Positions 2,714-47,496 of a stretch of 64,000 nucleotides of DNA are shown one piece after another. The DNA is taken from the IMG/VR virus record IMGVR_UViG_3300042923_000619, positions 132,136-196,135 of that record. One strand, given 5' to 3'. Source of the stretch: a virus. A program made the translations under genes and the position numbers. The notes under the pieces are model-generated. The model saw only the letters and a list, made by a program, of their open reading frames with translations. It did no database searches and was not told the DNA's origin. Each line of letters begins with the position of its first letter. The first letter of the stretch is position 1.

Positions 2714-2992
2714 TTAAATATAATAATTTAAATGTGTCTCATCTTCTTTTTCATCACATTTATTATTCAAAGAACAATTTTCACAATTAAATTTCATAAT
2801 TTTATTAGGACAAACCCCTAGTGCTAAGGCTATGGCTGAAATAAGAGATAGTTTTGGAGATTTTTTACGTGTAATAGTCGGTTGTTCTAACATAGCTATA
2901 TAAGCTTGGCTTACACCAACTCTATATGCTAATTCTTCTTGACTCATATGACATTCATGTCGATAATATTTTATGGATAATTCATATAACAT
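2714..2992 (-). CDS. XRE-family repressor with C-terminal Cys cluster
   Basis: IKYYRHECHMSQEELAYRVGVSQAYIAMLE is a classic HTH_3; C-terminus CPNKIMKFNCENCSLNNKC; likely start is the ATG at 2992 behind an AGGAG RBS (ORF track opens at 3013); the only convincing minus-strand gene in the window. Confidence 0.85.
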   Translation of the reverse strand: MLYELSIKYYRHECHMSQEELAYRVGVSQAYIAMLEQPTITRKKSPKLSLISAIALALGVCPNKIMKFNCENCSLNNKCDEKEDETHLNYYI

Positions 2993-3348
2993 TTTATACA
3001 CTCCTTTCGACAAGTAGAAATGTTTTTATCATTATAACATGGAATATTATGTCGAAACAAGATGAAAATTAATCCAATAATAAAATATTAGTAAAATATT
3101 ATTACCACCAGTAATAGTATTAAAAATATGATGTGATATAATAGATTTATAGGAGTTGTTAAATTATTAACAATTTAATTTTAATAAACAAATGAATATA
3201 ATAAGCAAAACTAAAGCCGATAAAAATATCATAATAACTGATAAAATTTCTTTACAGAATATTTGTTTGGTGTTAAAATTATATCTATAATAAGAACACA
3301 CATTCGATAAAACTATGGTAATAAAAATAAATATTCCTAAAATACATA

Positions 3349-3897: not shown

Positions 3898-5316
3898 ATG
3901 ACACAAGAAGAAGTTCTTATATATAGTCAAGAAAATTTAAATAAAGAATTAAAAAAAGTTATAACAAAATATTTTAAAAATAAAGAATTAATAAAATCTA
4001 TAAATTTTGAATTAGCAGAAAAAAATATGAATTCAAATATAACATCAGCATTATTTTTAGATGGAACATTAGAGCCAAAAGATTTATCTAAAGAAGAAAA
4101 AATGGCAATAACAAAAGTTTGTTATGATGTTTTAAAATTAGAAAAATTAAATTATAGAAAATATTATGAAGCAGAAGAAAGAGGAGATTACAACAGTTAT
4201 AAAAATATAGAAAAACAAATAAAAGAAATAGAACTTCATAAAATTCAAAAAATAGATGAATATAATTATATAGGTAGAATTAGCTATGAACAAATATATC
4301 TATATATGAAAAATGTATTATTTAGATATAACAAATTGGCACAAAGAGCATTTAAAACTAAATCATATGGAACAAAGGATTCATCAATAAGAGTTATTGA
4401 CTTAAAACAAAAAAATGTTAATGCTATGTTAGAATTGATATTAAAAGGAAAATTAGAAAGTACACAAATAATAATAAATGTGAGACTTCCAGAAGGAGAT
4501 GAAGATTTTGAACCAAAATATGTATTTGAATCAATAGATGAAGAAAATCTTCCCGACATTGGAACTTTATCAATTTATCCATTATATGATATAGATAGTA
4601 AAGATTTTACAGTAGCAGAAATATTAGATGGATTCCATAGATTAGTTGCTGTTTATCAAGCAATAGCACAATATAAAGCTGAAAATAATGGTACAGTTCT
4701 GGAAGGTGGATTAGATATTAGAATTGTAATGAGAACACTTTCAGAAGCTCAAGAAATCGTCAGACAAATTTTTGAAAGAAGTGACACAAATAAAGAATTC
4801 ATAAAAGGATTTAAACAAGGTGATGATGTTGATTTCTTAAAATTAGTAGAAGATAATTCTAAAATACTAAAAGGTGAAATCGCAATAAACTTCGAAGAAC
4901 ACAAAATGTCTAAAACATTAACATATAAAACAATTTTATTAGATGCATTAAAATTAACAGAAATTCAAGTAGAGAAAAAGGGAAGTATTAGAACTATAGC
5001 AAAAGAATTAGGTTCTACAATTGATGAATTAGTTGAATCATTGAAGTTTAAGTACTTTAATGATAATTTAGAAGATATGGAAGCAGATAGTATGCTATTA
5101 AGTTGTAATATGTTCGTAGGTTATTTAGCTATAGCAAATACTATGAGAACAATGAAAGATTATAATAAAATTGATGAGGTAATAGATAACCTATATACCG
5201 TTCCTAAGTCACAATTAGAAAAATTGAAAATAAATCGTAGCCCAAATTCTTGTAATTATAAAGTTATATACAAATACTTTACAAACTTAGTAATGGAGGT
5301 GTATAAAGTTGCATAA
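3898..5316 (+). CDS. ParB/Sulfiredoxin-fold (DGQHR-like) protein, SPbeta YopQ-like position
   Basis: EILDGFHRLVAV motif matches ParB GxxRxxA / DGQHR; 472 aa; overlaps the next gene. Confidence 0.6.
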   Translation: MTQEEVLIYSQENLNKELKKVITKYFKNKELIKSINFELAEKNMNSNITSALFLDGTLEPKDLSKEEKMAITKVCYDVLKLEKLNYRKYYEAEERGDYNSYKNIEKQIKEIELHKIQKIDEYNYIGRISYEQIYLYMKNVLFRYNKLAQRAFKTKSYGTKDSSIRVIDLKQKNVNAMLELILKGKLESTQIIINVRLPEGDEDFEPKYVFESIDEENLPDIGTLSIYPLYDIDSKDFTVAEILDGFHRLVAVYQAIAQYKAENNGTVLEGGLDIRIVMRTLSEAQEIVRQIFERSDTNKEFIKGFKQGDDVDFLKLVEDNSKILKGEIAINFEEHKMSKTLTYKTILLDALKLTEIQVEKKGSIRTIAKELGSTIDELVESLKFKYFNDNLEDMEADSMLLSCNMFVGYLAIANTMRTMKDYNKIDEVIDNLYTVPKSQLEKLKINRSPNSCNYKVIYKYFTNLVMEVYKVA

Positions 5317-6466
5317 TCAAGATTTGGAATTTATAGGTCAAAAATATTTAAAACCGACTCTAGAAGAAACAGAAGCAAAAAAGCAAGAAATATTGGCTAG
5401 TTATGATAAGTTTCAATTAGATAAAATTACATGGTTAAATAATGTGTATATAGAAGAAACAACTAAAAAACCTTTATGGAGTGTTTATAATAATAATATC
5501 CATGATTATGAAGTTGCAAAAAACAAGGATTTGAAAGATTTTCAACAAGAAGAAGTTGTTTCTATGATGAAAAGTTTTATTTATGTAGCACCTATGACTT
5601 TAGGATCTATTAAAGCTTTTGTTAATAGATATTTTGATTATTGGGTTGAAAAAGGTTATATAACCATTAATCCTATACTTGGTGAGAAATCATTAAAAGG
5701 AATAAAATCAAATAAAAAAATGTTAGAAACAAAAATATACAATATGGATGAATTTTATGATTTACTAAGACAAATGAAAGAAGTCACAAAATCAGCTAAT
5801 ATAAAACCTTTATTATTAGGTAGATATGGCATACAAGGGAAACAATTGATTCATATGAGAAGTTTGAAATATAAAGATATTGATATAGAAAATAAATTTG
5901 TTAATATTTATGATGAAAATAATAAATTTCTAACATTAATTCCAATAGATAACCAGTTTATTGATTTTCTGGCTGAATTAGATGATATTGTTGATGAAGA
6001 CTCTAAGAAGAAATTATATGAATCAGATGTATATGTATTAGAAACAAGAGAAATAGTAAATTATAATACTGTAAATAGTAGAGTTTATAATGCATTTAAA
6101 TATTTGAATAAAAATGGTAAAGAAAATATAGAAGACTGGGAAAAAGTTCCTCGTATATCTTTTAATGATTTACTATTTACAAGACAAATTGAACTTTTAT
6201 TGCAAATAAGAAAGACAAGAAAGATATCTATTCTTGATATAAACAGCATAGTAGATATCTTTGGTAATATAAAAGGAACAGCATTTTCTAAGTATCATAT
6301 ACAAGAAAAATATGAAAGTTTAACAAAAGATAAAGTTCTATTAATTCAAGGAGGATATGCAAAGTTTGAAAATAAGATGGAGATATTAAAAGTTAATATG
6401 ATTGATCCATTAGCGTATGATACAGTCAATGAAATTTGTGAGTCAATAGGATTGAATATAGATTAG
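5309..6466 (+). CDS. Tyrosine-recombinase-fold protein lacking catalytic residues; putative master repressor (MrpR/YopR-like)
   Basis: SAM-like core-binding segment (TLGSIKAFVNRYFDYWVEKGYITINP) and box I-like LLGRYGIQGKQLIHMRSLKYKDID with no catalytic Arg; the HxxR box reads NDLL. Confidence 0.65.
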   Translation: MHNQDLEFIGQKYLKPTLEETEAKKQEILASYDKFQLDKITWLNNVYIEETTKKPLWSVYNNNIHDYEVAKNKDLKDFQQEEVVSMMKSFIYVAPMTLGSIKAFVNRYFDYWVEKGYITINPILGEKSLKGIKSNKKMLETKIYNMDEFYDLLRQMKEVTKSANIKPLLLGRYGIQGKQLIHMRSLKYKDIDIENKFVNIYDENNKFLTLIPIDNQFIDFLAELDDIVDEDSKKKLYESDVYVLETREIVNYNTVNSRVYNAFKYLNKNGKENIEDWEKVPRISFNDLLFTRQIELLLQIRKTRKISILDINSIVDIFGNIKGTAFSKYHIQEKYESLTKDKVLLIQGGYAKFENKMEILKVNMIDPLAYDTVNEICESIGLNID

Positions 6467-6493
6467 ATTGGGAAAATCCAATCTTTTCTTTTT
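6465..6493 (+). terminator. Intrinsic terminator
   Basis: AGATTGG/CCAATCT stem followed by a T-rich tract. Confidence 0.75.
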
Positions 6494-6515: not shown

Positions 6516-6544
6516 TTGACATTATATTCCGTAGGGTGTAATAT
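6516..6544 (+). promoter_or_regulatory. sigmaA promoter P1 of mazF-TPR-peptide operon
   Basis: TTGACA-17bp-TAATAT. Confidence 0.7.
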
Positions 6545-6603
6545 ATAGTCATGGGAGAGATAACAACAAATTAAAATAAAAAAGAAAAACATTTAAAAAA
6601 GTA

Positions 6604-6632
6604 TTGACAGTATTACCAAATGGTGGTAATAT
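6604..6632 (+). promoter_or_regulatory. sigmaA promoter P2 of mazF-TPR-peptide operon, overlapped by an inverted repeat
   Basis: TTGACA-17bp-TAATAT; TATTACCA-N5-TGGTAATA palindrome at 6611-6631. Confidence 0.75.
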
Positions 6633-6719
6633 TAAAACATAGGAACAAAACAAATTAATGTAAAAAAGTAATTTGAAATGAAATTTAATAAGAAATTAAT
6701 TAAATGGATGGTGGCAGTA

Positions 6720-7580
6720 ATGAAAGATTTTAGAGAACAGCTAATGGCTATAAAGACAGAAATGAATGAAAAAGAATTAACTCAAAAAATAAAGGTTGAG
6801 GTCAAAGACCTAGATATAAACAAACAAATTAAGCAAATTAAAATTGAAGTGAATACCAATGATAAAAATTTACATAACAATATTGAGCATAAAAATGTTA
6901 TGTATAGACCAAATTATAAAAATATTGAAGAAAAACATGAATATATTGACTTAAAATATATAAAGCGAGGTGATGTAATATGGATTAATCTTTTTGGGTC
7001 AGTTGGGTCGGAACAAGGTAGTGATGAATATGGTCGTCCATGTGTCTGTATCCAAAATGACGTTGGAAACGCTCATTCACCAACTATAATAGTCTCAGCT
7101 ATAACATCTCAACTTGGAAAACAAAAATTACCAACGCATGTGTTAATTCCTTCATCAGAACAATATGGATTAACTAAAGATTCTGTGGTTTTATTAGAAC
7201 AAATAAGAACTGTTGATAAAAGAAAAAGAATATTAAGAAGAACAGGTCACTTGGATGAGCTAGTAATGAAAAAGATAAATAAGGCTTTAGCAATATCAAT
7301 TGGTGATTTACAACAAAAAAATACATTAGAAAAACTTGAATCAAAAATACAAAAATATATAATAAATAGCTTTAAATCAATTGATACTTATGAAATGACA
7401 ATTGAAACTATGCAAATAAATAATGTTCCACAAGAGGCAGTTGATTTAATAGAAAATCAAAAGTTTAGAGAAGAAAATGGGTTAAAATGTTATTGTGATG
7501 ATAATAAATTAAATTATAATATATTATATAATGATTATAAAAATATGGTTAAAGAAAAAGAGGAAGATATCGCATTATAG
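6720..7580 (+). CDS. mazF: MazF/PemK (EndoA-like) endoribonuclease with N- and C-terminal extensions
   Basis: KRGDV...VGSEQG..RP...IQNDVGN.HSPTIIVSAITSQ..K.KLPTHV...DSVVLLEQIRTVDK closely follows B. subtilis EndoA, including catalytic Arg/Thr; ORF open from 6678, ATG at 6720 is the likely start; no MazE gene adjacent. Confidence 0.9.
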   Translation: MKDFREQLMAIKTEMNEKELTQKIKVEVKDLDINKQIKQIKIEVNTNDKNLHNNIEHKNVMYRPNYKNIEEKHEYIDLKYIKRGDVIWINLFGSVGSEQGSDEYGRPCVCIQNDVGNAHSPTIIVSAITSQLGKQKLPTHVLIPSSEQYGLTKDSVVLLEQIRTVDKRKRILRRTGHLDELVMKKINKALAISIGDLQQKNTLEKLESKIQKYIINSFKSIDTYEMTIETMQINNVPQEAVDLIENQKFREENGLKCYCDDNKLNYNILYNDYKNMVKEKEEDIAL

Positions 7581-7592
7581 TATGAACAGGAG

Positions 7593-8216
7593 ATGGGTAA
7601 TATGGGAAAAAGAGAGGAAGAAATAGAAAACAAAATAAGAAATGAAGTGTTTATAGGTTGTTTTGGTAGAGGGGAATTTAATAAAGGAAAAAAAATATTA
7701 CAAAAATTATATTATCAATATTATCCTATTTTAGATACTTTTGAAACTAAAAGAATGATTCTTTATAACTATATAGTTGGAGAAAGATTGGACACAAATA
7801 TTGAAGATATAATTAAAAAATGTAGTGAAAAACTAAAGAATGATATGGATAATGAACTAAATTATAAAGAGACAAATACAAAAGAATATTGTATGATGTT
7901 AGCATATTATTGTGATACACATAAAGAAGAATTAGGAAAAGAAGAGTTGATAAATATATACACATTTAGTTATAATTATTATAAAAAGGCTGGATTGGAA
8001 ATTGATATGTTAAATTCTAAATTCAATTTAGCTTTAATTGAAAAAAAGTTTGAAATTGTCTTTGAGATTATCAAAGACATACATAATAGTGATGACAAAA
8101 TATGTCAAGCTGTTTTATCTCAAATGCTAAATGATTTAAAAAACATAAACATAAATAAATATATTGAAATACAATTATTACTTAAAAAAGAAAATAAAAA
8201 ACTTTCATTAGTTTAA
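7593..8216 (+). CDS. All-helical TPR-like protein; putative RRNPP-type peptide receptor without HTH
   Basis: 207 aa, amphipathic helical repeats with TPR-like Tyr/Ala/Leu/Asn pattern (YCMMLAYYC, YTFSYNYYKK, MLNSKFNLALI); directly followed by a propeptide gene. Confidence 0.55.
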   Translation: MGNMGKREEEIENKIRNEVFIGCFGRGEFNKGKKILQKLYYQYYPILDTFETKRMILYNYIVGERLDTNIEDIIKKCSEKLKNDMDNELNYKETNTKEYCMMLAYYCDTHKEELGKEELINIYTFSYNYYKKAGLEIDMLNSKFNLALIEKKFEIVFEIIKDIHNSDDKICQAVLSQMLNDLKNININKYIEIQLLLKKENKKLSLV

Positions 8217-8276
8217 AATATGGTTAAAAGACACCTTATAAAAGAACTTAATAACTAATGAAAGAGGTGAAAACAT

Positions 8277-8369
8277 ATGAAAAAAATTTTAAGTTACGCA
8301 TTAGCTTTAGCGGTATTCGTTGCTCCAACAGTAATCAGAATACTAAGCTCAGGTGGTGGTTGGGGATGA
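8277..8369 (+). CDS. 30-aa secreted-type signalling propeptide MKKILSYALALAVFVAPTVIRILSSGGGWG (not in ORF track)
   Basis: GAGGTG RBS, ATG at 8277, TGA at 8367-8369; MKK + hydrophobic core + AxA-like cleavage region + polar C-terminal tail; terminator follows. Confidence 0.8.
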   Translation: MKKILSYALALAVFVAPTVIRILSSGGGWG

Positions 8370-8405
8370 TATTTAATATTATTCTTCCACAATAACAATC
8401 TACAT

Positions 8406-8442
8406 AAAAAGGCAATTAGGAGCAATCTTGATTGCTTTTTTA
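8406..8442 (+). terminator. Intrinsic (bidirectional) terminator closing the peptide operon
   Basis: A-tract, GGCAATTAGGA-GCAA-TCTTGATTGCT stem-loop, T-tract. Confidence 0.8.
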
Positions 8443-8491
8443 TAATTTATAGATTATTTATAATAAATTAAGAAAAATATAAATATTATTA

Positions 8492-8520
8492 TTGACAATG
8501 GTAATTAATAGTATTAAAAT
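8492..8520 (+). promoter_or_regulatory. sigmaA promoter of the downstream early operon
   Basis: TTGACA-17bp-TAAAAT, with AACAAATTAAT at 8530-8540. Confidence 0.7.
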
Positions 8521-8556
8521 GATAATATAAACAAATTAATAGAAATATAGAAAGGA

Positions 8557-9180
8557 ATGATTAAAATGTGCAAAGCTGTAAATTATGGGGCTGAAATCAA
8601 TAAACAAATTACAGAAGCTAAAGAATATTATAATAAACTTAAATCTAAAGAAAAAATATTTAATGATATGCAACAAGATTTATTACATAAAATAGAAAAT
8701 ATTGATAAATTTAATTTATATGAGGGCTGGGAATTATGCAAGTCTTTACAAAAGTTAAGAAAATCAAGAAGAGAAACAAAAAATGAATTAGATACAATGG
8801 AACGATTAATTAGGCAAATTGGAAGTTTCAATATAAATGCTGATTTAATTGAAAAACGAGATAATTTCTTAGAACAAGTCAAAGAAGAAAAAAGATATCA
8901 TCAAAGACAATTAGATATGACAGGGGACATTTTGAATGAAGTTAATGATATAGTCAACAATGCAAATAATTTTGAAATATCAAGCTTCGAAAAAATTTAT
9001 GAAGCATATGAAAGTATACCAAAAATAAAAGGAAGTAATGTAAAAATAAGATATACTTCAATTAAAAATAGAAGTAATATAATCAATAATAAAAAGCCAG
9101 CATATAATAAATATGTGATTAATGAAAAAGAAAAATATATAGAATTTATTGATAGAAAGAAAGGAAATGTACAATGTTAA
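8557..9180 (+). CDS. Hypothetical coiled-coil protein
   Basis: ORF track; heptad-rich N-terminal half. Confidence 0.65.
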   Translation: MIKMCKAVNYGAEINKQITEAKEYYNKLKSKEKIFNDMQQDLLHKIENIDKFNLYEGWELCKSLQKLRKSRRETKNELDTMERLIRQIGSFNINADLIEKRDNFLEQVKEEKRYHQRQLDMTGDILNEVNDIVNNANNFEISSFEKIYEAYESIPKIKGSNVKIRYTSIKNRSNIINNKKPAYNKYVINEKEKYIEFIDRKKGNVQC

Positions 9181-44549: not shown

Positions 44550-45971
44550 ATGAAACCAATATTTGAAGAAGAAAAGAAATTTATAGAAGAAAGAATAGGA
44601 CTTAAATTGCCAAATAACTGCTGGAGAGATGGAAAAACAATATATCTCAATTGCGATAAAGATACAAGAATATTAACTTTTACGATAGAACATAAACAAA
44701 TTAAAATTAAAAAGAATTTTATAGATAAAGTATTAAATACATATGAAAATAAAACTCTAGAACAAGAAATAGAAGAAAATAAAGAAAGATTGGATCAATT
44801 AGAAAGTACAAGCATTAAAAATACTATAGAATGTATGGAAAAATATCCTAACCATAATTGGAGGATAAGCGATTCAAGTGGTAAGGATTCAGCTATTTGT
44901 ATGAAGATATGTCAGAAGGCTATGAAACAGATAGATAATTATGATTATGATATAGATTTTTTCAATACAACTAACGATACTGCTGATACATATAAAACAA
45001 TAAAACAAAATATAAAGAATACTATTATATTCCAATTAAATGGACAAGATATAACTAAAGAAGAAATGAATAAATTATATAATGAATCATACTCAAAATG
45101 GGTACATAATCCTGAAATGGGATGGTATCAATGGTTGAAAGAAGTTAAACATTATTATTTACCATCAATCATGGTTAGAAACTGTTGTTCTACCTATAAA
45201 GAAGGAAAACTAAAAGAAATATTGGACAAGAAAAAAGACTATGTATTATTTTTAGGTATGAGAAAATTTGAAAGTTCTAAAAGAAGTCATTATGATTGGT
45301 ATTTAAATGAGGCAATGGATGAAATGTATGAAGAAACAAAAAAGGACAAGTATAAAATTAATGTGCCTAGAAATTGGGTTAGGTTTTTGCCTATAGTGGA
45401 ATGGAAAGATGAGGATATATGGATGTATATGCTTAGAGAAGGGATAGAATTCAATCCAATGTACAAGAAAGGATTTGGTCGTGTAGGGTGTCTCTTATGT
45501 CCATTCAGTGGTGATTATAATGATTTACTAATAGAATATTATTATCCTTTACAATGGGATAGATGGAGTGGAATAGTTGAAAAGAATTATGATCTATATA
45601 ATGTTGAGACTAGATTAAAATGGACTAAAGAAGAATACATACAAGAAGGAAAATGGAAACAATCTACAAGTAAGATTCAAGAATACATAACTAAAAAAGC
45701 TACACCAGAAAGAATTAAAATAGTAGCAGAACTTTTAGGAGCATCTGAAGAAATTGCAGAAAAGTATTTTAAACAAAAATGTAAATGCGACAAGAAACTA
45801 AATCCAGACGAAGTGGCTATGTTTTTAAAATTATATGGAAGATATGAAGGGGAGGTAGATGAAAGAGTTTATTTATGTAAGGATTGTCTATATAAAGAAT
45901 TAGGATTAACTAAAGATGAATATTCTGAGAAAGTTAGAGAATTTCGTGAACAAGGTTGTAATCTATTTTAA
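44550..45971 (+). CDS. PAPS reductase/DndC-like PP-loop family protein with C-terminal Cys cluster
   Basis: SDSSGKDS, RNCCSTYKEG, FLGMRKFESSKR, PIVEW...DIW.Y, NPMY..GF.RVGCLLCP. Confidence 0.85.
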   Translation: MKPIFEEEKKFIEERIGLKLPNNCWRDGKTIYLNCDKDTRILTFTIEHKQIKIKKNFIDKVLNTYENKTLEQEIEENKERLDQLESTSIKNTIECMEKYPNHNWRISDSSGKDSAICMKICQKAMKQIDNYDYDIDFFNTTNDTADTYKTIKQNIKNTIIFQLNGQDITKEEMNKLYNESYSKWVHNPEMGWYQWLKEVKHYYLPSIMVRNCCSTYKEGKLKEILDKKKDYVLFLGMRKFESSKRSHYDWYLNEAMDEMYEETKKDKYKINVPRNWVRFLPIVEWKDEDIWMYMLREGIEFNPMYKKGFGRVGCLLCPFSGDYNDLLIEYYYPLQWDRWSGIVEKNYDLYNVETRLKWTKEEYIQEGKWKQSTSKIQEYITKKATPERIKIVAELLGASEEIAEKYFKQKCKCDKKLNPDEVAMFLKLYGRYEGEVDERVYLCKDCLYKELGLTKDEYSEKVREFREQGCNLF

Positions 45972-46287: not shown

Positions 46288-47496
46288 GTGATTATTATTA
46301 AAATTTATAAATCATACATAATCCCAATCAGGAATATACCACAAAAAGATGTTGATTATTTATTTGAATGCAATAGGGAGTCGGCTAAAGTGTGGAATGA
46401 ATGTTTAAGGGTAAACAAAGAATACTGGACTAATGAACAAAAATATGTTGATACCAATTACTTACAAAGTAAATTAAAAGGGTTCTCCGAAGTACTACCT
46501 TCTAATTGTGTACAAGTAACTATAAAAAAGTTTATGGGTGCTATTACTGGGATTCAACGAGCAAGAAAAGCTGGAAGAAGTGACGTAAAATATCCTTGGA
46601 AACAAAAGAAATTTTATAATACTATATGGAAAGGTCAGTCTGTAAGGGTAAAAGGTAATTATATTCTATTAGGAAAACCTAAAGACCAAATTAATAAAAA
46701 ACTATTACCACCTTTAAAAATTTATTCAGCTTATATCCCTCCTAATATATGTTATGCTGAAATATTATATGATAATGGTTTAAAGTTGGCACTAAACTAT
46801 TGGATTGATTCTGAAGAATATGAACAAATAGAATCTAATAATATATCAGCTATTGATTTAGGAGAAATACATACAATGACTTCAGTTGACACATCAGGAA
46901 ATACTCAAATTATAACAGGTAGAAGGCTAAGAAGTTTTCAAAGGTTTAGAAATAAAGAATTAGGTAAAATACAACATAAGTTATCAAAATGTAAGAAAGG
47001 TAGTAGAAATTACAAGAAATATAGACAATCTATCAGAAAATTAACAAGTAAATCTAATTCTAAAATAACTAATGAATTACATAAGGCGAGTAAACTATAT
47101 ATTGACTATGCAGTGAAAAATAAAATAAAAACAGTCATAGTAGGAGAATTAACAAATTTCAATATGAATTTAAAAAATATAAAAGGAGGTGGAGGACGGC
47201 TTCAAAAATTAGTTCAATGGAATTACGGACAATTAATAAATATGCTTACTTATAAACTTGCTAGACATGGAGTTATAGTCAATCAAATAAGTGAAGCATA
47301 TACTAGTCAAACATGTCCTAATTGTGGTCACAAATATAAACCAACAGGTAGAAATTATATTTGTAGTGAGTGTGGATTCACATTACATAGAGATGTTGTC
47401 GGAGCTTATAATATTTTAAGCAAATACATAAATGATGGAGTAATTAAGAAAATGGATTTAGAATTAAAATCCTTAAAGTATCTACGTATAGGTTAA
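46288..47496 (+). CDS. tnpB: TnpB RNA-guided endonuclease (IS200/IS605, IS1341-like; no tnpA)
   Basis: RuvC-I AIDLGE, RuvC-II IVGEL, Zn finger CPNCG..CSECG, RuvC-III HRDVVGAYNI; all three acidic residues intact. Confidence 0.92.
   Translation: MIIIKIYKSYIIPIRNIPQKDVDYLFECNRESAKVWNECLRVNKEYWTNEQKYVDTNYLQSKLKGFSEVLPSNCVQVTIKKFMGAITGIQRARKAGRSDVKYPWKQKKFYNTIWKGQSVRVKGNYILLGKPKDQINKKLLPPLKIYSAYIPPNICYAEILYDNGLKLALNYWIDSEEYEQIESNNISAIDLGEIHTMTSVDTSGNTQIITGRRLRSFQRFRNKELGKIQHKLSKCKKGSRNYKKYRQSIRKLTSKSNSKITNELHKASKLYIDYAVKNKIKTVIVGELTNFNMNLKNIKGGGGRLQKLVQWNYGQLINMLTYKLARHGVIVNQISEAYTSQTCPNCGHKYKPTGRNYICSECGFTLHRDVVGAYNILSKYINDGVIKKMDLELKSLKYLRIG

Follow-up and report, generated by a model that had tools for sequence, protein, structure and literature searches.

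The three-gene unit and its parts

The window analysed here is a 64,000-nucleotide stretch that forms the final 64 kb of the 196,135-bp IMG/VR virus record IMGVR_UViG_3300042923_000619, which bears direct terminal repeats. At positions 6516–8443 of the window lies a three-gene unit made up of promoters, a gene for an extended MazF, a gene for a protein with a tetratricopeptide repeat (TPR) fold, a 30-codon open reading frame (ORF) and a hairpin terminator. Its features are as follows, with L001 denoting one of the related loci described in the next section.

6516–6544, + strand: promoter-like site P1, TTGACA-17-TAATAT, kept in L001
6604–6632, + strand: promoter-like site P2, TTGACA-17-TAATAT with an extended TG, near-identical in L001
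6678–7580, + strand: extended MazF/PemK-like RNase gene; Pfam PemK_toxin (PF02452) over aa 96–207, E 1.4e-29
7305–7577, + strand: C-terminal extension of MazF (aa 210–300), predicted docking site for the TPR protein (interface 226–272 in the complex model)
7593–8216, + strand: gene for a TPR-fold protein that lacks a DNA-binding domain and is a candidate for both peptide receptor and MazF partner; AlphaFold model with a predicted local distance difference test score (pLDDT) of 87
8264–8269, + strand: ribosome-binding site GAGGTG of the peptide ORF, 7 nt upstream of it, identical in L001 and comparable in most other loci
8277–8369, + strand: 30-codon pro-peptide ORF with an MKK start, a hydrophobic core with Pro and the tail SSGGGWG
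8349–8366, + strand: predicted mature peptide region SGGGWG, proposed from tail conservation against L001 and from AxA-like sites before the tail in relatives
8404–8443, + strand: intrinsic-terminator-like hairpin with U-run at the end of the three-gene unit; 18 pairs, -19.5 kcal/mol, z -5.87

Every sequence element listed in an earlier note on this DNA is present. The tandem sigmaA promoters that it described correspond to two sigma-70-like TTGACA-17-TAATAT sites, both conserved in L001; the unannotated short ORF with a strong ribosome-binding site is the one at 8277–8369 behind GAGGTG; and the terminator placed after it is the hairpin at 8404–8443. This hairpin is also kept in L001, and 0 of 200 shuffled sequences gave an equally good one. 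A simple terminator scan missed it because its stem is poor in G-C pairs. The stretch from the promoters to MazF contains no ORF. The MazF stop codon and the start of the TPR ORF (7593) are 12 nt apart, and a gap of 60 nt separates the TPR gene from the peptide ORF.

P1 and P2 are near-copies of one another (AAAAGT-R-TTGACA ... GGTG-K-TAATAT), lie approximately 88 bp apart and are both retained in L001. They may double as operator sites for the neighbouring MrpR-like protein.

Comparison with homologues places the true start of MazF at the ATG at 6720, which has GGTGG upstream and yields a protein of 286 aa, so that positions 6678–6719 of the longest ORF are probably an overshoot. The protein consists of an N-terminal extension of about 80 aa, a PemK core (aa 95–209) and a C-terminal extension (aa 210–300); with the start moved to 6720, the extensions of about 80 and 90 aa that had been claimed are borne out. 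Its core shares approximately 50% identity with PemK of B. anthracis and EndoA of B. subtilis. The residues aligned with Arg25 and Thr48 of those two proteins are Arg120 and Thr143, which are invariant in 10 homologues; the MazF/EndoA domain had thus been correctly described as having its Arg and Thr intact. We take these to be the catalytic residues, as in the structure of B. subtilis MazF with RNA.

The two extensions behave differently. The N-terminal extension is variable, predicted to be disordered and absent from some homologues. The C-terminal extension is conserved in all homologues, ends in KEKEE-x-IAL and is modelled as helices at 222–247, 252–275 and 280–299 with pLDDT of about 90; it is shared with PHROG 1936 ('MazF-like growth inhibitor') and with CST027 of phage c-st. 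The absence of MazE that had been reported extends to the entire 196-kb record when MazE is sought as PF04014 (antitoxins of the ribbon-helix-helix type were not searched separately), and there is no second MazF anywhere in that record. For the TPR gene, homologues indicate that the true start is the ATG at 7602 (204 aa), 10 nt after AGGAG, and positions 7593–7601 of the 207-aa ORF are probably also an overshoot.

Conservation of the triad and of the peptide tail

Besides the window, 15 distinct related loci were found in uncultured phage contigs, with receptors ranging from 97% identity to a relative detected only by profile (E 2e-7). The loci taken in were L001 (the nearest relative, at 97%), L002 (with L003–7 and L023), L008 (with L009, L010 and L022), L012, L013, L014, L015/16, L017, L020, L021, L024/25, L026, L027 and L028. 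A short ORF lies just after the TPR gene or overlaps its end in 15/15 loci, mostly with a ribosome-binding site. The extended MazF is directly 5' of the TPR gene in 14/15 loci where the upstream gene could be judged, a count that includes two cases at contig edges where only the end of the C-terminal extension is visible (L015 and L026) and one locus known from its gene table only. The synteny of mazF, TPR gene and peptide ORF that the earlier note had proposed looking for thus extends to distant relatives.

The TPR family is small. Among 5.8 bn proteins there are 6 close relatives, and a profile search of 1.84 bn representatives returned 53 clusters. Members are approximately 200–230 aa where complete, with a few shorter fragments, and no fused or longer forms (402–2000 aa) were found. 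The family is absent from GenBank phages, from PLSDB plasmids and from the GTDB genomes covered by a pattern scan.

In silico comparison of the window with L001 shows selection acting on the peptide tail. The last 9/9 residues are kept despite three synonymous changes in Gly codons, while the leader carries 7 amino-acid replacements and the flanks, ribosome-binding site and terminator are near-identical. The peptides are 30 aa long in the window and 18–51 aa in the relatives, and 13/15 have 2–4 Lys/Arg in their first 10 residues followed by a hydrophobic stretch. In many of them the core has a Pro a few residues before a small-x-small (AxA-like) site, which is followed by a tail of 4–7 residues. 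The tails in the set are SGGGWG, GNPWG, SGNGWG, TGNGWG, TGNPW, TINP, TTGSKG, SGSPRS, GTMGRG, GPPTHG, GGGEMWG and GTIGGWG, plus a longer form, SGNPY.... Precursors of 18 and 20 aa, the two shortest, have no basic start, yet end in ...GGWG and ...EMWG; as they keep the WG end, the tail rather than the leader appears to be the conserved, functional part.

In a maximum-likelihood phylogeny of the receptors, the tails group according to the clade of their receptor. The 98/98 clade has K/R/H-type tails, the 97/98 clade has tails of the form G-N-G/P-W/Y, and a third group ends in x-x-W-G. Peptide class therefore follows receptor clade, which bears on the suggestion that receptor and peptide be examined for co-variation; as such sorting is also expected from common descent, it is consistent with co-evolution but does not prove it.

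The 51-aa pro-peptide encoded at 1938–2093 of L028 contains two copies of the hexamer GVQAWG, an internal one preceded by K-P-R and one at the C-terminal end. It has the look of a precursor from which one signal is released in duplicate.

At 3057–3915 of L013, a 229-kb IMG/VR contig, MazF is split. The ORF for the N-terminal extension stops at 3332, and the PemK core follows right after the stop codon in another frame, with no start codon ahead of the catalytic Arg. Beside it, TPR gene and peptide (tail TTGSKG) are both intact. The split could stem from a frameshift, from faulty assembly or from decay of the gene.

One of the 15 loci, L021 (964–2022), has a TPR family member and a 20-aa ORF (GGGEMWG) overlapping the TPR stop; upstream of its TPR gene, in place of MazF, is a divergent 69-aa gene of the HTH_3 helix-turn-helix (HTH) family. 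The proteins encoded upstream in L021 were tested as stand-alone versions of the MazF extension and rejected.

Phage c-st (NC_007581; L018, 3953–8147) encodes the same extended MazF as CST027 (MazF-like growth inhibitor, phrog_1936), which is 28% identical across 200 aa (E 9e-13); the homologues of YopQ/YopR, CST029/030, lie two genes further on. CST028, the 218-aa product of the gene after CST027, was considered as a relative of the TPR protein and rejected (hhalign probability 0.3%), and no peptide ORF follows. As c-st has the extended MazF without the TPR–peptide pair, the extended MazF appears to be older or more widespread than the pair.

A TPR sensor proposed to gate a phage MazF

The product of 7593–8216 has a TPR fold in its AlphaFold model (pLDDT 87, predicted template modelling score 0.80, 10–11 helices), in line with its earlier description as all-helical and TPR-like. 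When structures were compared with VIA-align, the top match was the Rap protein of phi3T (8rsv_A; Z 13.1, root-mean-square deviation 5.7, 194 residues aligned), and NprR (Z 12.7), RapI (12.2), PlcR (12.0–12.1) and the Rap of pLS20 (11.5) were close behind. Generic TPR proteins scored equally well (Z 12.6–12.9 for KLC-like repeats, with the LGN TPRs also tied), and because Z values do not separate TPR families among helical repeats, these matches identify the fold as TPR but do not single out the RRNPP receptors as its kin. The structural neighbours of the protein in the Atlas are also TPR proteins. At the sequence level, Pfam returned no match to the TPR protein and no HTH, in agreement with the claim that it lacks one. 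TPR hidden Markov models (HMMs) run on 45 family members gave nothing at E<1e-5, the best being TPR_8 (E 0.044) in one member. Nothing was found when the PDB was searched with the family profile, and Foldseek gave no match at E<=0.001 in the PDB or BFVD; usable TPR matches came from VIA-align alone.

A complex of two copies of MazF (aa 90–300) and one TPR protein, each with its own purpose-built alignment, was predicted with a score of 0.78 (runs of 0.00, 0.78 and 0.78), against 0.00–0.12 for three controls, the best of which reached 0.12. A score at the level of 0.78 was reached by 58/80 solved complexes and 2/110 mismatched pairs, counts that hold only roughly here because own alignments and a 2:1 stoichiometry were used. 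Agreement between runs was at least 0%, and the pLDDT of the partners was at least 81. The predicted interface joins residues 226–272 of the MazF C-terminal extension to TPR helices 1, 3, 5–6, 7–8 and 10, and lies outside the RNA groove. We know of no solved complex of a MazF extension with a TPR protein, and memory of a template is thus an unlikely cause of the score. The co-folding of receptor and MazF that the earlier note proposed yields a model that supports binding of the TPR protein to the C-terminal extension of MazF, but does not show it.

The computational checks that might have refuted the earlier note all turned out in its favour. The best reading of the unit is peptide sensing of an RRNPP-like kind, in which the receptor is new and minimal and a toxin is the direct output. 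We incline, by a little, to the view that the three genes form a signalling and effector cassette of the phage in which a TPR peptide sensor gates the phage's MazF in the manner of Rap/Phr or arbitrium. The pro-peptide would be exported, and cleavage, probably by signal peptidase behind a small residue, would free a peptide of 5–7 residues with a G-x-x-W-G end (here approximately SGGGWG). This peptide would build up with the number of infected or lysogenic cells and then be re-imported, to meet the TPR protein of approximately 205 aa as its cytoplasmic receptor. As the receptor lacks a DNA-binding domain, it is proposed to act as Rap does, through protein–protein contact, with its concave face gripping the three-helix C-terminal extension of the phage's own MazF. 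In the most likely version, the TPR protein would restrain MazF in the role of the missing MazE, and peptide bound in the same TPR groove would free it. High phage density would then lead to RNase activity, growth arrest and a bias to lysogeny or dormancy, a direction that would parallel phi3T, where high AimP leaves the host MazF active.

The full form of this proposal is more tentative, and we think it possible rather than probable that all of its parts hold. It would have a secreted 5–7-mer compete with the MazF docking domain for the groove of the approximately 205-aa TPR protein, convert density into RNase activity without a transcription factor and so set lysis–lysogeny or dormancy, with the peptide variants serving as private 'languages' among large temperate phages of clostridial type.

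Several observations count against the signalling interpretation. All of the evidence for the cassette is computational, obtained in silico. The TPR receptor is roughly half the size of known RRNPP receptors, it has no sequence homology to them (Pfam on 45 members, PDB profile search), and Z-scores do not set RRNPP receptors apart from generic TPR proteins. The peptide tail is short and very Gly-rich, and its exact processing is not predictable. One of the three complex runs scored 0.00. Interface residues are not better conserved than the rest, and less so across the wide family, a pattern that can also be taken as neutral since it fits a specificity surface and, equally, plain surface exposure. 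Finally, L021 has the TPR gene and peptide without MazF, and c-st has the extended MazF without TPR gene or peptide, so that neither link is obligatory.

The strongest competing explanation, which we regard as unlikely, is that the unit is only an unusual toxin–antitoxin pair, in which the TPR protein is a non-canonical antitoxin docked on the MazF extension and the small ORF encodes an unrelated hydrophobic micro-protein that only has its transcript in common with the pair, for example a membrane peptide involved in exclusion or lysis timing. The toxin-first order, the 12-nt gap and the lack of MazE would suit such a pair, and the complex model supports TPR–MazF binding under this explanation as well. 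It is also true that the product of the window ORF is mostly one hydrophobic helix. However, the conserved part of the peptide is its hydrophilic tail and not the hydrophobic core, and the versions of 18–20 aa have no length left for a tail once they cross a membrane. A micro-protein with an unrelated role also sits poorly with a peptide ORF that stays with the TPR gene even without MazF (L021), with the duplication of GVQAWG in the L028 precursor and with a peptide class that tracks receptor clade.

We find it slightly less likely still that the TPR protein and peptide are a true signalling pair whose output is not MazF but the YopQ/MrpR-like pair or a host protein, while MazF would be an early gene of its own, acting for example against the host or in abortive infection. 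Both dissociated cases can be cited in its favour, namely the L021 pair, which lacks MazF and lies beside a divergent HTH gene, and the extended MazF of c-st, which lacks the pair; the cassette also always adjoins repressor genes. Set against this are the position of MazF directly upstream, at a short gap, in 14/15 judgeable loci and the complex model, which speaks for binding to the MazF extension in particular, the controls scoring 0.00–0.12. A mechanism resembling the extracellular death factor, in which a secreted Trp-containing peptide would bind MazF itself and tune the RNase while the TPR protein served as a plain antitoxin or chaperone, is very improbable: many of the tails do contain Trp, and short Trp-containing peptides such as NNWNN are reported to enhance MazF activity (PMC3668371, PMC5930309), but an entire receptor clade has tails without Trp (TTGSKG, SGSPRS, GTMGRG, GPPTHG) whereas conservation of the MazF core is high, the class of peptide goes with the TPR tree, and a TPR gene beside a pro-peptide gene is the layout of RRNPP receptors in Firmicutes (bioRxiv 10.1101/2021.08.18.456871).

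Other origins for the small ORF were considered and rejected. It has no Cys lipobox and is not a lipoprotein signal; there is no modifying enzyme gene nearby, as would be needed for the precursor of a ribosomally synthesised and post-translationally modified peptide; and the terminator at 8404–8443 and a separate promoter at 8492–8520 intervene between it and the downstream gene, for which it could otherwise have been a leader peptide.

Compared with known systems, a TPR sensor gating MazF would be closest to the RRNPP group in arrangement. The five-part signature used by RRNPP_detector comprises a pro-peptide of 10–70 aa, a receptor of 250–500 aa with a TPR HMM match, adjacency of the two genes and a pro-peptide that is secreted and matures to a short peptide; secretion relies on a Sec signal in most cases, and on PptAB for SHP and PrgQ (bioRxiv 10.1101/2021.08.18.456871). 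The pro-peptides of the cassette (18–51 aa) fall within the 10–70 aa range, and receptor and pro-peptide genes are adjacent or overlapping in all 15 loci. The receptor, at 204–207 aa rather than 250–500 aa, is shorter than typical RRNPP proteins, as had been noted, and has no TPR HMM match. Failing on receptor length and on the TPR HMM, the cassette would not be reported by published RRNPP detectors, and the expectation that it would be easily missed therefore holds. Search rules that demand 250–500 aa and a TPR HMM may systematically miss such systems.

With Rap–Phr, known from B. subtilis, with Rap proteins also in phages phi3T and phi105 and on pLS20, the cassette shares a TPR receptor without HTH (Rap regulates by protein–protein contact), a same-strand gene for a short pro-peptide immediately after it, a C-terminal mature peptide of 5–7 residues (predicted here) and carriage by phages. 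It differs in the length of the receptor (approximately 205 aa versus approximately 380 aa for Rap), which lacks the N-terminal three-helix bundle of Rap and has no room for the complete Rap architecture of this bundle and seven TPRs. Sequence similarity is absent, and the Z-score ties with those of generic TPRs. The proposed target is a phage RNase toxin and not Spo0F/ComA, and there is no pro-region in the pro-peptide at most loci.

The arbitrium of phi3T works through the host MazEF, with the MazF RNase as the lever of the lysis–lysogeny choice (PMC10769878); the earlier statement on SPbeta arbitrium phages is thereby confirmed for phi3T. Like arbitrium, the cassette is a phage peptide system beside YopQ/YopR (SroE/SroF) repressor genes, with a tail of hexapeptide size that often ends in Gly. 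Unlike AimR, which is a DNA-binding antiterminator with HTH and TPR parts, its receptor has no HTH; there is no aimX-like unit, the terminator following directly after the peptide ORF; the MazF is phage-encoded, extended and predicted to contact the receptor directly; and the cassette follows the repressor genes instead of preceding them. Lacking both HTH and aimX, it is not an arbitrium system. Nor is it a canonical MazEF, as there is no MazE. With MazEF/PemIK it shares a PemK-fold RNase with catalytic Arg and Thr in a two-gene unit with a predicted partner. However, that partner is a downstream TPR protein, contact is predicted to involve an added three-helix domain at the C-terminus instead of the RNA groove, and a third gene encodes a peptide of secreted type.

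The C. acetobutylicum QsrB/QspB system likewise has a clostridial-type Trp/Gly pro-peptide encoded after its receptor. According to the earlier note, the QspB peptide ends in Trp/Gly; Trp and Gly are indeed in the active part, but the active fragment is AEPTWGW and its end is W-G-W, not Trp-Gly (PMC7376267). Qsr receptors differ in being full-size with an Xre HTH, and Qsp precursors are 39–50 aa with conserved Leu, Pro and Trp positions not seen in the cassette peptides.

Full-text literature searches found no description of a MazF–TPR–peptide system of this kind. In arbitrium, phages count each other by peptides and the count is read through the host MazF. If the proposed mechanism is true, the cassette would put the sensor directly on a phage-borne MazF, giving a post-translational readout without a transcription factor in another group of phages and hosts. 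Quorum sensing, toxin–antitoxin biology and lysogeny control would then be joined in one three-gene unit. The natural WG-type and RG/KG/HG-type tails would be ready-made specificity controls, and the unit is small enough for a full test with synthetic genes and peptides.

The lysogeny-control neighbourhood

The cassette is located in a lysis–lysogeny region of SPbeta type with YopQ/YopR-type repressor genes, and lies directly after the ParB-like and MrpR-like lysogeny genes that had been described from the sequence (3898–5316, a phrog_5732 member with DGFHR, and 5309–6466, with a match to MrpR_N_CB). The features of this region are:

2714–3013, - strand: small HTH_3 (Cro/CI-type) gene, divergent, at the edge of the lysogeny-control block; Pfam HTH_3 E 3.7e-8
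3898–5316, + strand: YopQ/SroE-like DGFHR-domain gene, 472 aa; phrog_5732 E 5.5e-37, DGFHR at aa 244
5309–6466, + strand: MrpR/YopR/SroF-like recombinase-fold gene; Pfam MrpR_N_CB E 6e-6, 27.3 bits against a cut-off of 27; phrog_5830 integrase
6465–6484, + strand: terminator-like hairpin closing the upstream repressor operon; 8-pair stem, then a T-run

The start of 5309–6466 overlaps the end of the 3898–5316 gene. Homologues of 5309–6466 in L001, L014 and L017 match MrpR_C_cat. MrpR/YopR is the master repressor of SPbeta (PMC10516654), and the product of 5309–6466 is a candidate for the master repressor of this phage. The equivalent pair in phage c-st is annotated as YopQ and YopR homologues, the syntenic CST029 being the YopQ homologue. 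A 69-aa counterpart of the HTH gene at 2714–3013 occupies the same position in L002–L004.

The phage has a GC content of approximately 24%, and the window also encodes a PolC-like polymerase, a DnaB-like helicase, a primase and a RecJ-like exonuclease. From the 24% GC and the c-st-like genes, the host is probably clostridial. In the replication region of the phage, a PAPS-reductase-like gene (44550–45971, phrog_424) and a transposase-like gene (46288–47496, phrog_506, E 1e-55) are present.

The gene after the cassette (8492–9180) has its own TTGACA-17-TAAAAT site at 8492–8520 and encodes a coiled-coil-like protein of 207 aa (phrog_32601). In L001 and L008, too, it comes after the cassette and opens with the shared motif MI(K/E)(M/L)C.

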